A DNA stretch of 25,521 nucleotides from a virus: UHGV virus genome UHGV-0301809, one strand, 5' to 3'. Positions within the stretch are counted from its first letter, which is position 1, and each line of letters starts with the position of its first letter. A model generated the notes under the pieces. It did not search any database. It saw only the letters and a list, made by a program, of their open reading frames with translations, and was not told the DNA's origin. Below, one piece after another: positions 5,676 through 22,605 of the stretch. Position numbers and translations under genes: made by a program.

Positions 5676-8039
5676 AATAAACATAAGAATAAACATCAGA
5701 AGTTCCTCGTATCTGATACCATACTGATAACCAGCAGGTTTAATAATAACCTGCCTTCCTGTGTAATATTCCTCGTCGTACCACTCTCCTGTTTCATTGT
5801 TTTTAACACTCCTAATTAATACCTCTGGAGCATAAATATCATCCCATTCATCATAACACCAGAACGCATAGTTATTAGGGTCAAGACCGTATTTTCTGAG
5901 AATATTACCTACAGTTTGTGCACCAACACCGAAATGAATCCGAGCGCCATCACTCTTGATCTTTACTGCATCTTTAAATTTAAACCTCCAGATATTTTTC
6001 TTTATTTCAAGCGCAGCAAGACGCTCTGATTCTGTTGTTTTCTCGTCAGCCTCAATACGCAATTTCAGCTCTTCATTCGACGTGTTGATACTGCCAGTAC
6101 CAGCGTATACCTGTGACCATCGAAATGCTGATGTTCCGTTTGAGTTAACATTATCAACAGTTGGTTTTATAAGGCCAGAAAAATGAGTTTCAGGTGATGT
6201 ATGAAGAAGATATCCGCCAGAATCGTTTTTTGTGCGTAATTCTATAGAGTCTACAATTATTCCACTGCGACGAATAATGATAGCGTTATTACCTTGTGCA
6301 CCATTGTCTTTCTGAGTGGATAGTGTGTATCCGGTACGAGTATCTATCCTCCATCTTTTGGTATCTTCTGATGCTTCCTGATTATAAAGATAAATAGAGT
6401 TATCAGTGTAATTATTTTTGCCATCAATATTTGTAAGTGTAAATGTGTTATTTACTTTGTCATCATTGACCATTAAATTGGCAAGAGTGTAGAGAGGAGA
6501 TGCAGTATACTGGCTGCAATTAAAACCACGTGCGTTTTGTATGTTAAGTAATGTTGTGACATTAGCATTAATGCTAATATTGGAAAAGTTTGTCGCCTGA
6601 TTTGCTCCATGTATTGATGATGTTACTCCTATCTGAGCTCCAATATCCAATGTACCAAAACTTACATTAATGAAGTTGTTTGCATCGCCACCATCTATAA
6701 TTATTCCTTTTTTAGTCGTCGTATAACCTGATGCACTGCTAATCTCCAATCCATTAATGGTGCACACTCTTGGTCTGATGAGTCTAATTCCTACCCATTC
6801 ATTTCCGTGGTCATATCCTCCTCCTGCTCTATGTATGGCTAGTCCATTAGCAATCAAAAGAAATCTGTTATCAAGATTAATAGGGTGAAGCTGGCTATTA
6901 ATGATAACGTTTGTCCATATAGACTCACCATACGCATAGCGATTTGATTCGAACACTCTATCCTGAGCATCATAAACACCGTTTAGGGATCTAGCAACAT
7001 CGACATTGGTAAGATTGAAATATGTCTTCTGCTTAATTTCAAAAAAATTGGCAACGTTATGCGTTGTGATATCACTCACACGCATGGATAAAATACCTTC
7101 TTCTGGAGCGGTGCGAATGAATCCATCAAGGAACTGTTCATTATAACTTTTGGCTATCTGATAACATCCAACAGCATCAATGCGTTCGATTGTGAACTGC
7201 CAACTATCACCACAGTTAAAAGACCATTCCCAACCGTACTTCTGTGCGAATTCATCAGAATCAATATTTGCAGTCTCAGAACAGAAAGATAAAAATCTAA
7301 ATGTTGGTTTTGGCCTTAGATGATTAAGCCCGACACCTCTTGGGGTATATATGGCATTAGCGCCATTCCCGCCTTTGCTTTTAATTGTAAGGTGACTTAA
7401 ACCAAATTCAACATCATGCTTAGTTGGTGCAGCGAAAACAAATCCATCTTTTGGTGATGTGGTATTATCAAACACAATAACCGTTTTACCCTGTCCATCG
7501 CCACACATATTCACTGGTGGTATATTAACTGGTCCAATTAAATTATATGTTCCAGTTGGAATATATAACTTTCCACCATCTCCAAGAGCATTTGCTGCTG
7601 CAATAAATGCCACCGTATCATCGTTAACACCGTCACCTTTCGCCCCATAATGCTGTGGCGTAATTAACAGCATACGGTCAGAAAAAATCTCTTCCCTAAG
7701 TTGATCAGGATCGTATTTTAATACATTTGGAAAATAAAACTGCTGAGTGCCATATGCATCATATACAGCCATAGAATGGCCTTGCACAGTTACGAATTTG
7801 GCAATCTGCCCGTTATATACCGGATATCCAGCAGCATTTATAACGATTGGTTGTGACACTTGAACATGAGTACCGTCTTCTCGTTCCAGATATACAGGGA
7901 TCTGGTTTTCAGGATTTACCGGATCAGTGTCAATTTTTCCGATATAAATTTTGCCATTGGCATTTGCTTTAAACGAGCGAGCTAAAGTAAATAACTGACT
8001 TGGTTGTGAAACAACAACGTTGTATAATTGTTCTGGCAT
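5673..8039 (-). CDS. tailspike: P22-type head-binding N-domain, pectate-lyase-like beta-helix, C-terminal intramolecular chaperone-like domain
   Basis: N-terminus [71 protein letters not shown]...[13 protein letters not shown]...NVLKYDPDQ matches P22 gp9 head-binding domain; central [23 protein letters not shown] motif; C-terminal ...HFGVGAQTV...IRYEELL resembles S74-type chaperone domains; alternative start ATG 8048. Confidence 0.85.
8000..8028 (+). promoter_or_regulatory. candidate promoter for HNH gene (TTGGTT-N17-TATAAT)
   Basis: Perfect -10 TATAAT at 8023-8028, weak -35 TTGGTT at 8000-8005, about 35 nt upstream of the HNH start; lies antisense within the tailspike 5' end. Confidence 0.35.
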
Positions 8040-8061
8040 AATAAACATTCCGGAGAAAATA

Positions 8062-8562
8062 ATGAGTAAGAGACGTCACGAGGTAGTAACTCGGGAGCGC
8101 CTTATGGAGGTTCTCGATTACAATAAAGAAACAGGAATTTTCACTTGGAAAAAGAAATTAAGCGCCAGAGGTGCTGTTGGGAAAGTTGCTGGCACAATTT
8201 CTTATGGATATAACGCAATTAATATTGATGGCGTAAGATATTTTGCACATAGACTTGCCTGGCTGTATGTATATGGCGAATGGCCCAAACAAGAGATTGA
8301 CCACATTGATAGAAACAGAAGAAATAACGCAATCTCAAACCTTAGGGATGTCAGCAGAGTCGTAAATGCATTAAATGTCGGACCTCGAAATAGCAATGCT
8401 GGAATCAAGGGGGTAACTTTCTGTCAAGCCAGAAATCAATGGCAAGCTCAGATAAATGTCTCAGGTAAAAACATAACCCTTGGGAGATTCAACACCATTG
8501 ATGAAGCGGCTATAGCTTATAAGGCAGCAAACATGGTTGCTGACCATCTGTTGAGTAGGTGA
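8062..8562 (+). CDS. HNH homing endonuclease with C-terminal AP2-type DNA-binding domain (copy 1)
   Basis: ATG 8062 after GGAG at 7-nt spacing; HNH block [38 protein letters not shown]2-like block [41 protein letters not shown]; track TTG 8020 start rejected. Confidence 0.8.
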
Positions 8563-8693
8563 TATCTGACATTTCATTGCTCCAGACGAATGATATGATG
8601 CAACCATGATGTGATTGCATACCGAAATGGTACTATTGAGTATTTATCCAGTAGGTTACGATGCCATTCCACCCAACTGGTGAGGCATCAAGG

Positions 8694-22054: not shown

Positions 22055-22073
22055 AACTTTACCGTGATAAAAT
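22044..22073 (+). promoter_or_regulatory. candidate promoter for HNH copy 3 (TTGTCA-N18-TGaTAAAAT, extended -10)
   Basis: TTGTCA 22044-22049; TG at 22065-22066; TAAAAT 22068-22073; about 30 nt upstream of the GTG start at 22105. Confidence 0.35.
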
Positions 22074-22104
22074 CAATGGGACAACTTCAACAGGAGATTC
22101 TATT

Positions 22105-22605
22105 GTGAGCCATCCATCTATAGAAGATATAAGGAAAAATTTCACATACGATGCTGAAACCGGAATTTTGTACGCGGCTAATCGCACAAGGAGGACAGAC
22201 CTTAACGGCAAGCCCGTTGGGTGCCAGCATGGAAACGGATACCTTGATGTAAGGCTTGGTAAAAAACTGTACTACGTGCACAGAATTTGTTTTGCGCACT
22301 ACTATGGTTACTGGCCCGAAGCAGTAGATCACATAAACGGAAACCGTGCTGATAACCGCATCTGTAATCTTAGAGATACCAATAAGCAGTTGAACGGACT
22401 AAACCGTGGCATGGATTGCGACAATTCAACTGGATACAAAGGAGTTTCCTATCGCAAGGACACAAATAACTACATGTGGCAATTTGTGGTAGAAGGCAAG
22501 AAATACACAAAAAGCGGATTCGCTACAGCATTAGATGCATACAAGCATAAGGTAGCATTTATTAACGCTCTGAATTCCGCTGCCTCTGAATTTCTCAAAC
22601 CGTAA
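22105..22605 (+). CDS. HNH homing endonuclease with C-terminal AP2-type domain (copy 3)
   Basis: GTG start after AGGAG; HNH block VHRICFAHYYGYWPEAVDHINGNRADNRICNLRD; AP2-like GYKGVSYRKDTNNYMWQFVVEGKKYTKSGFATALDAYKHK. Confidence 0.8.
   Translation: MSHPSIEDIRKNFTYDAETGILYAANRTRRTDLNGKPVGCQHGNGYLDVRLGKKLYYVHRICFAHYYGYWPEAVDHINGNRADNRICNLRDTNKQLNGLNRGMDCDNSTGYKGVSYRKDTNNYMWQFVVEGKKYTKSGFATALDAYKHKVAFINALNSAASEFLKP

Follow-up and report, generated by a model that had tools for sequence, protein, structure and literature searches.

The virus genome UHGV-0301809 carries, within its late operon, three genes for HNH endonucleases, and these genes together with the recoded DNA attached to them are the subject of the present analysis. 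The window, by which we mean the whole stretch of 25,521 nucleotides analysed, belongs to a P22-like (Lederbergvirus) phage or prophage of Escherichia coli (E. coli), as judged by megablast, which yielded 637 relatives among phage records. The nearest phages, IME10, Louie, CurroJimenez (Bas106), APC_JM3.2, Dewey and HZ41, are 94-96% identical over about half of the window. None covers 80% of it, and the window itself has no match in the collections of phage genomes and complete E. coli genomes, the best coverage again being about half.

The late (virion) operon is read from the minus strand. Its genes were identified by Pfam and from the annotated relatives IME10 and Louie, and the labels that an initial annotation, made from the letters alone, had given to them proved right. 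The three open reading frames (ORFs) that it had listed on the plus strand are also there, all of them opposite to the operon. They are here called HNH1, HNH2 and HNH3, and they sit in the tailspike region (site 1), between scaffold and coat (site 2) and between terL and portal (site 3), respectively. Each of them is part of a larger cassette (Table 1).

Table 1. Features of the window that are discussed in the text (the cassettes measure 620-690 bp each; aa, amino acids; SD, Shine-Dalgarno sequence)
Feature	Position	Strand	Remarks
Cassette 1	7939-8557	endonuclease +	
Cassette 2	18333-18960	endonuclease +	
Cassette 3	21938-22626	endonuclease +	
HNH1	8062-8562	+	166 aa; HNH_3 + AP2; SD GGAG at 8052-8055; antisense to late operon
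HNH2	18439-18960	+	173 aa; HNH_3 + AP2-like; stop codon abuts scaffold stop codon on the opposite strand
HNH3	22105-22605	+	166 aa; HNH_3 + AP2-like; GTG start, SD GGAG 8 nt upstream
Cassette 1, tailspike part	7939-8048	-	new start codon and ~37 codons, heaviest recoding in the first ~29
Tailspike start relic	8558-8583	-	SD GGAG, ATG, codons 2-5 (MSDIT); identical to IME10, then diverges
Cassette 2, remainder	18333-18438	mixed	recoded coat codons 1-13, degenerate copy of scaffold end, leader
Cassette 3, left part	21938-22104	portal tract -	recoded portal codons 1-39 (21938-22054), 50-nt leader
Cassette 3, right edge	22606-22626	-	9-nt spacer, altered last three terL codons and stop
terS	24095-24589	-	Pfam/annotated relatives
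terL	22615-24117	-	Pfam/annotated relatives
Portal	19886-22054	-	Pfam/annotated relatives
Scaffold	18961-19872	-	Pfam/annotated relatives
Coat	17076-18371	-	Pfam/annotated relatives
WDGH-domain ORF	16439-17212	-	PF25311, E = 2e-39; fills coat-gp4 gap 16528-17075
gp4	15961-16527	-	Pfam/annotated relatives
gp10, gp26, gp14, gp7, gp20	between gp4 and gp16 in the operon list	-	Pfam/annotated relatives
gp16	9044-11041	-	Pfam/annotated relatives
Mnt-like repressor gene	8661-8954	+	Arc and Repressor_Mnt domains; between gp16 and tailspike
Tailspike	5673-8048	-	Pfam/annotated relatives

The endonuclease genes and their domains

All three proteins match the Pfam family HNH_3 (PF13392) above its gathering cut-off of 24.8 bits, HNH1 with 59.7 bits (E = 2e-16), HNH2 with 78.0 bits (E = 4e-22) and HNH3 with 48.9 bits (E = 5e-13), and all of them match PHROG_99 'HNH endonuclease' with E-values from 7e-63 to 1e-49. 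Judged by these scores, the relationship to HNH nucleases is not due to chance. The only solved structure found by sequence is that of I-HmuI (PDB 1U3E). HNH2 alone detects it with E = 8e-4; the match improves to 4e-7 with a profile of the three sequences and to 2e-7 with one of 66 sequences. In the alignment of HNH2 with I-HmuI, the residues D74, H75, N87 and N96 of the latter fall on positions that are invariant in HNH1-3 (D80, H81, N93 and N102 in HNH1). Among 66 homologs, D80 and N93 are invariant, and H81 and N102 are conserved at 90% or more.

The C-terminal AP2 domain was recognised in a different way. Searched against the PDB, the profile of the three sequences retrieved I-HmuI only; to detect AP2, the profile of 66 family members (HNH1-3 included) and a structure model were needed. 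The larger profile matches the AP2 domains of WRI1 (E = 3e-8) and TEM1 (4.5e-5) and also those of ERF096 and ERF1, and a precomputed match to PF00847 exists in about half of the close homologs. The AlphaFold model of HNH1, the only one of the three that was modelled, has a predicted local distance difference test score (pLDDT) of 87.7 and ends in three strands and a long helix. When it was compared with the PDB by Foldseek, I-HmuI 1U3E ranked first (96 columns, root mean square deviation (rmsd) 3.5, probability 1.00, E = 0.005), followed by the AP2 domain of TEM1 (42 columns, rmsd 1.5, 38% identity) and by ERF1, the rmsd of the AP2 matches being 1.4-1.5. The nuclease part of the model thereby agrees with a beta-beta-alpha-metal fold like that of I-HmuI. 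The HNH plus AP2 architecture proposed in the initial annotation is thus upheld, the AP2 half by the 66-sequence profile and the fold of the HNH1 model, Pfam AP2 alone being insufficient. On the basis of sequence and model, HNH1-3 belong to the HNN-AP2 (HNH-AP2) class of phage proteins.

Among themselves the three proteins are only 32-34% identical, although they can be aligned over their full length. The invariant columns comprise G-K, G-Y, H-R, D-H-I, N..I.N-L-R, N..N and G..G-V. They are, in other words, as divergent as had been claimed, and the term 'paralogous' chosen for them fits at the family level. It does not fit within the genome, each ORF having much closer relatives elsewhere: Kapi1 encodes a protein 100% identical to HNH1, and Louie and Dewey encode one 100% identical to HNH2. 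For these two reasons intragenomic duplication was rejected; with so low an identity, the genes must have been acquired separately and not duplicated in the window genome. About 3000 phage records match each ORF query, often with several matches per genome. A six-frame scan of the window with the family profile yields just the three known frames and no further endonuclease remnants. The GC content is 0.39-0.43 at each ORF or cassette versus about 0.50 in the surrounding operon.

Since neither a group I intron nor any other Rfam family reaches its gathering score within the window, the endonuclease genes are free-standing. An intron context of group I or II was also rejected because the ORFs are antisense to their flanking genes and the latter are complete.

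Anatomy of the cassettes

The three cassettes share a common geometry. The endonuclease gene is directed away from the late gene that has received its 5' end from the cassette, and the 3' end of the endonuclease gene meets either the end of the upstream gene or, at site 1, the relic of the tailspike start. The exchange covers 13-39 codons at the start of the late gene downstream, i.e. of portal, coat or tailspike; the recoding is mostly synonymous and sharply bounded. The initial annotation spoke of intergenic slots. The insertions do sit at junctions between late genes, but slot 1 lies inside the ancestral tailspike ORF, and at all three sites a downstream 5' end has been exchanged. The junctions were mapped by protein-guided codon alignments; MAFFT and simple global alignment set the diverged 5' ends wrongly across the gaps left by the insertions.

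At site 3, the window is 100% identical to the prophage MS6192 outside the insert. Portal codons 1-39 differ from those of MS6192 by about 45 changes in 117 nt, mostly synonymous, and by one extra codon; at 21937 the identity is back to 100%. At the other edge, the codon alignment shows that terL ends in RSTR* in the window versus RRT* in the empty allele. The recoded portal tract is present in 2/2 endonuclease-positive E. coli genomes and in 0/213 endonuclease-negative ones, which stop matching at 21937. The exact HNH3 protein was found in 134 blocks of an assembly collection. In all loci examined it occupies the terL-portal slot in antisense orientation, and these loci differ in Q antiterminators, lysis cassettes, nin regions and tail needles.

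Upstream of the portal ATG (22055-22075, minus strand) there is a sequence, ATCACGGTAAAGTTATG, which by eye is similar to the 3' end of terL and the start of portal in their ancestral form, ATCGCACGGAGAACTTAAATG. The complement of the -10 element of HNH3 overlaps with this sequence, which, from its letters, may be a degenerate copy that keeps a ribosome-binding context, as is the case at site 2. A motif common to the three empty target regions was not found, these having been looked at by eye only.

At site 2, the scaffold gene is unchanged up to its stop codon. In empty alleles this stop codon overlaps the coat start (TAATG). Coat codons 1-13 (18333-18371, minus strand) contain 14 substitutions in 39 nt, after which identity with MS6192 and IME10 resumes in the codon alignment. 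Three of the changes alter the protein (A2T, N4K and L13I), and the others are silent. Positions 18372-18385 hold a degenerate repeat of the 14 nt with which scaffold ends, AAGGTATTCAATAT versus AAGGAATTCGATAA, which supplies the ribosome-binding site of the coat gene. Here, too, the recoded tract was found in filled loci only.

At site 1, the tailspike gene now starts at 8048 (or 8039), about 520 bp beyond its ancestral start, and the new N-terminus MFIMPEQLY... replaces MSDITA... (codon alignment with IME10 and MS6192). The old start survives as a relic. Because identity with IME10 ends after codon 5 and the antisense of HNH1 follows directly, the insertion must have occurred inside the ancestral tailspike ORF, after that codon. 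The relic opens an orphan ORF of 20 codons and is overlapped by the stop codon of HNH1. Kapi1 possesses its own version of the relic, MTDIT, as in P22. Between 7939 and 8560, window and Kapi1 differ by a single mismatch; outside, mismatches are dense, and the Kapi1 flanks are in fact unrelated: on the right there is an ant gene, and on the left the body of the tailspike gene is a different one.

Empty sites and independent assortment

Empty alleles had been expected by the initial annotation and were found at all three slots; the ORFs are, accordingly, not a conserved core feature. Site 3 is filled in 2/215 and empty in 213/215 E. coli genomes, and it is empty in 8/8 close phages. In IME10, Louie and MS6192 there is no gap between the stop codon of terL and the ATG of portal. 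The flanks of empty alleles can be up to 100% identical to those of the window: MS6192 has the same terL and portal flanks and lacks just the 689-bp cassette. Site 2 is filled in 20/218 and empty in 198/218 E. coli genomes; among the phages, Louie and Dewey have it filled (99%), and IME10, HZ41, APC_JM3.2 and CurroJimenez have it empty. Site 1 is filled in about 16/695 E. coli genomes and in Kapi1, and it is empty in IME10, Sf101 and many others.

The empty alleles of site 3 also bear on another function that might be ascribed to HNH3. Since its gene directly adjoins terL, the protein could be a terminase-associated HNH packaging factor of the kind by which cos phages generate their DNA ends (HK97 gp74/GVE2 type), and HNH proteins beside terminase genes are described as a known class in two reports (PMC3592412, PMC5304195). 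A gene that 213 of 215 otherwise near-identical prophages and all eight close phages lack is, however, not required for packaging. HNH3 is, moreover, encoded on the opposite strand, it matches HNH_3 and AP2 and not the zinc-binding class, CxxC pairs being absent from HNH1-3, and its two family relatives in the window are far from the terminase. We thus consider a role in packaging extremely improbable and, in view of the empty alleles and the missing CxxC motifs, rejected it.

The three cassettes assort independently. HNH1 is the only one in Kapi1, HNH2 the only one in Louie and Dewey, and HNH3 the only one in the loci L007, L008 and L010-L013. Sites 1 and 2 are both occupied in AR_0118 (H256, H301) and in L015, and sites 2 and 3 in strain 19451123 and in L014; in GB089 site 1 is filled and site 3 is empty. 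All three cassettes are combined in the window alone, a second such locus being absent from the E. coli genomes and prophage loci surveyed.

Indications of recent movement

In nine loci, cassette 3 is 99-100% identical, whereas the adjoining segments of 250 bp in portal and terL are 94-98% identical. The HNH3 gene itself is 100% identical at the nucleotide level in seven backgrounds, the flanks of which differ by 2-6%, and it is this discrepancy that speaks for recent spread of HNH3 rather than old decay. In the window, by the way, the flanks of site 3 are closest (100%) to those of a prophage in which the cassette is absent. For cassette 2, the identity in Louie, strain 19451123 and L014 is 98.5-100%. 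In every locus examined, the boundaries of the cassettes are identical and each recoded tract accompanies its own endonuclease gene. With cassettes better conserved than their flanks, empty sites and independent assortment, the signature of homing-endonuclease invasion that had been read from the sequence of the window is borne out.

Of course, one may ask whether the cassettes are inactive or decaying endonuclease relics, passively shuffled by homologous recombination and not homing today. The low fill rates would suit such a history, as would the highly mosaic nature of Lederbergvirus genomes (PMC11990801) and the degeneration after invasion that has been described for HNN-AP2 genes (PMC2248197). 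Yet the three ORFs are of full length, the catalytic D-H/N/N residues are invariant, the HNH3 gene has remained identical in its seven backgrounds, and the boundaries are the same everywhere, while passive recombination is expected to produce varied endpoints. We therefore regard mere relics as quite unlikely.

Expression signals

P22-type late genes form a single operon with antitermination of the Q/gp23 type, and late transcription would on this ground cross the inserts, as the initial annotation had proposed; the effect on competition in co-infection that it also suggested may likewise exist. For the endonuclease genes, the initial annotation had proposed a promoter-like element upstream of each. 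The elements it pointed out, TATAAT at 8023 and TG-TAAAAT at site 3, exist, but only the one at site 3 passes a consensus promoter scan. It reads TTGTCA-18-TAAAAT preceded by TG (plus strand, 22044-22073; TGaTAAAAT at 22066-22074), which amounts to 10/12 consensus matches, and its -35 hexamer falls within the recoded portal codons 2-4. A block, CCGTGATAAAAT.AATGGGA, is kept in the Salmonella phage SEN22, while the surrounding sequence is only about 70% identical. This block is the sole comparative support for a promoter, and the elements of all three sites are best called candidates. At site 1, the recoded codons 7-9 of tailspike contain a perfect TATAAT (8023-8028, plus strand), 17 bp downstream of a weak TTGGTT; this element does not pass the scan. 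Site 2 offers an extended -10-like TGcTATACT (18398-18406, plus strand) within the untranslated leader of 67 nt.

Terminator-like hairpins with T-runs are seen on the late strand inside HNH2 (18793-18816) and HNH3 (22267-22283). Counts of such hairpins are at most slightly above the shuffled expectation, i.e. no more than chance would give.

The orientation of the genes permits still another view, namely that they are chiefly nucleases, expressed in the lysogen from sigma-70-type promoters of their own, by which a prophage or its host excludes related incoming phages without recoded sites, homing being a side effect. Thanks to the antisense orientation and, at site 3, an own promoter-like element, the genes could be expressed even when the late operon is not; the presumed targets lie in essential virion genes; and for T-even phages it is established that homing endonucleases bring about marker exclusion (PMC2988022). 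Two of the three promoter candidates, however, are weak by consensus, and the rarity of the genes among prophages (1-9%) argues against a strong selective benefit. Exclusion would, by the way, be compatible with homing rather than opposed to it. As the main function we consider it unlikely. An extension of this idea would be that the three cassettes represent one orientation-locked design, a nickase gene with promoter hexamers written into the recoded codons. If so, the silent prophage, or a phage at an early stage of infection, could produce the enzyme until converging late transcription stops its synthesis, and cassettes stacked in one operon would amount to a prophage-borne gene drive and exclusion system, directed at P22-like phages without endonuclease genes when these infect the lysogen. 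This is a speculative and rather doubtful proposal.

Homing as the most probable explanation

Taken together, the domains with their intact catalytic residues, the boundaries, the polymorphism, the linkage of gene and tract, and the conservation of the cassettes above that of their flanks make it very probable that HNH1-3 are parts of free-standing homing endonuclease cassettes of the HNH-AP2 type which are mobile now or have been so recently. The individual steps of their spread, as outlined below, are each held with less confidence than this reading of the cassettes.

A genome with a cassette would meet a relative without it, be it by co-infection or when a phage enters a lysogen. In the empty allele, the predicted enzyme would recognise the 5' end of portal, coat or tailspike in its unmodified form and nick or cut it. 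For the choice between a nick and a double-strand break we can only argue by analogy; I-HmuI and the Mob enzymes of T4 are nickases. Recombinational repair would then copy the cassette, together with the adjoining recoded codons, from the filled allele. The carrier itself would be immune, as the insertion would split the site and the recoded codons would remove the recognition sequence, leaving the late protein nearly unchanged. The recoded tract would accordingly be the cleavage-resistant version of the target, provided that the recognition site indeed lies within the tract. Antisense orientation would separate the expression of the endonuclease from late transcription, and the late RNA polymerase, antiterminated by Q/gp23, would read through the roughly 0.6 kb of untranslated insert.

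Several observations do not fit this picture smoothly. Pfam AP2 remains under its cut-off in all three proteins (27.6, 15.7 and 13.6 bits for HNH1, HNH2 and HNH3, respectively, versus 33.3). The counts of promoter-like elements in the three regions are not above those in shuffled sequence. P22-like genomes being highly mosaic, ordinary homologous recombination could move the cassettes too. The fill rates of 1-9% could mean weak drive or a cost. Such a cost might be sought at the junctions, since the translational coupling of the empty alleles (TAAATG, TAATG) is lost in filled ones and the new ribosome-binding sites look weaker. These points all weigh against homing cassettes.

Relation to known systems

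Much of what is seen here has precedents. Free-standing HNN-AP2 genes are known from the phages Xp10/OP1/Xop411, T5, T1 and Rtp (PMC2248197), and the IPA-HNH genes of ICP1-like phages cluster beside terminase and capsid genes (PMC10448857). The genes of the window share with them the two-domain architecture, the motifs HRLAW, WP, DH, DNR and NLR, the occurrence of multiple copies per genome, the location beside terminase or capsid genes and the variable presence. Those reports, however, give neither conserved flanks nor defined targets, while the window offers boundaries, empty alleles and a linked recoded tract for each copy. It also differs in that the host genome is a temperate P22-like phage and that all three copies are antisense to the operon.

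I-HmuI of the Bacillus phage SPO1 resembles HNH1-3 in its N-terminal beta-sheet DNA-binding region and its HNH motif D-H...N...N. It resides, however, within a group I intron and ends in a helix-turn-helix, whereas the proteins of the window are free-standing and end in AP2, and the identity is about 25%.

The proposed intron-less homing has its model in T4, where co-conversion, marker exclusion and nicking have been described for the HNH enzymes of the Mob type (PMC2988022). The genes for SegF, SegG and MobE, like the cassettes of the window, have conserved genes on both sides. In the rival genome, these enzymes attack a polymorphic target by cleavage or nicking, with co-conversion of flanks and marker exclusion, and the carrier has a resistant variant. 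The differences are that Seg proteins are GIY-YIG enzymes, that Mob proteins are HNH enzymes with other C-terminal domains, and that T4 is virulent. Also, the T4 genes are mostly co-oriented with their neighbours, segD being an antisense exception, whereas those of the window are all antisense.

HNH3 has a counterpart in gp3 of the P22-like Salmonella phage SEN22, a homing endonuclease whose gene lies between those for terminase and portal (PMC5261728). Slot and antisense orientation are the same, the proteins are 68% identical, and the upstream -10 block is conserved. Unlike in the window, the gene of SEN22 is a diverged ortholog set in a Salmonella background, the portal 5' tract exists there in a version of its own, and the other two cassettes are missing.

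The protein class, its placement beside terminase or capsid genes and the terL-portal insertion in a P22-like phage are therefore already published. In GenBank, too, the ORFs bear the label of HNH endonucleases in the records of Louie, Dewey, Kapi1, SEN22 and E. coli prophages; in the literature, a search on Kapi1 combined with HNH gave no result. What is added here is the base-pair anatomy of the three slots, the replacement 5' ends with promoter-like hexamers in their recoded codons, the tailspike relic, the linkage of gene and tract and the triple occupancy of one operon. The cassettes are a well-resolved example of known biology, and the current understanding is unchanged.

To our knowledge, HNH-AP2 homing endonuclease genes are very common in phages, and almost none has a defined target. 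The cassettes narrow candidate targets down to portal codons 1-39, to coat codons 1-13 with the scaffold/coat junction, and to tailspike codons 6-37. Since cultivable carriers (Louie, Dewey and Kapi1) and empty relatives (CurroJimenez/Bas106 and IME10) exist, cleavage specificity, the choice between nick and break, and biased inheritance are amenable to experiment in a group of temperate model phages. The cassettes further illustrate how a translationally coupled junction of an essential operon can be entered without killing the phage, namely by means of a new downstream start. Finally, they mark places where mosaic exchange in the virion genes of P22-like phages is likely seeded.

Other features of the window and of related prophages

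The coat-gp4 gap is a further variable slot of the operon, in which no endonuclease is involved: relatives have there either an ORF of 76-86 amino acids without a Pfam match or a WDGH protein of 195-203 amino acids. The immI region (8563-9043) contains a single Mnt-like gene without arc or ant, as in IME10 (98% identical); in Kapi1 and strain 19451123 both arc and ant are present. An antirepressor-like ORF of the AntA/P22_AR_C type is found in the early-left region of the window (2932-3591).

The integrase ORF (3873-4786) is of the lambda type (Arm-DNA-bind_1 and SAM-like domains) and has only 292 amino acids. The match to the catalytic domain ends at profile position 96/172. Its last ~45 nt and the sequence that follows (4709-4786) match the 3' end of the unrelated integrases of the IntS type in Louie, IME10 and Kapi1, and with IntS of MS6192 the window integrase has no meaningful similarity. 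It looks truncated or chimeric, and the element may be incapable of integration or excision. A gene for a hexapeptide-repeat acyltransferase of 223 amino acids (4982-5653, plus strand) separates the integrase from the tailspike end, in a region with a GC content of 0.36-0.43. It has no counterpart in IME10, Louie or Kapi1 and is probably an O-antigen-modifying moron.

Endonuclease genes of another make occur in the late operon of related prophages. They encode NUMOD4 plus HNH_3 and are co-oriented with the operon (L006 13519-14244, also L009 and L011; L008 2461-3006; L010 2817-3350). One of their slots is gp4-gp10, where a leftover 5' fragment of gp10 persists upstream and the new gp10 start overlaps that for the endonuclease; another is situated between gp10 and the gene for the tail needle. 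With these slots, the P22-like late operon has at least five for endonucleases. The antisense endonucleases seen here are all of the HNH_3/AP2 kind without NUMOD4.

In L015 (10001-11504), a contig with HNH1 and HNH2, the genes for scaffold, portal, terL and terS are missing, and a lysis gene follows about 500 bp past the HNH2 stop codon. This gap could be a deletion with its breakpoint beside the endonuclease gene or an assembly artefact. The HNH3-bearing locus L013 (regions 13417-13902 and 19981-20501) has a T5orf172/MUG113 (GIY-YIG-like) gene near the lysis region, and a faint LAGLIDADG match in its DnaB of 797 amino acids suggests that the latter carries an intein. Prophages of the HNH3 type collect several classes of selfish nucleases.

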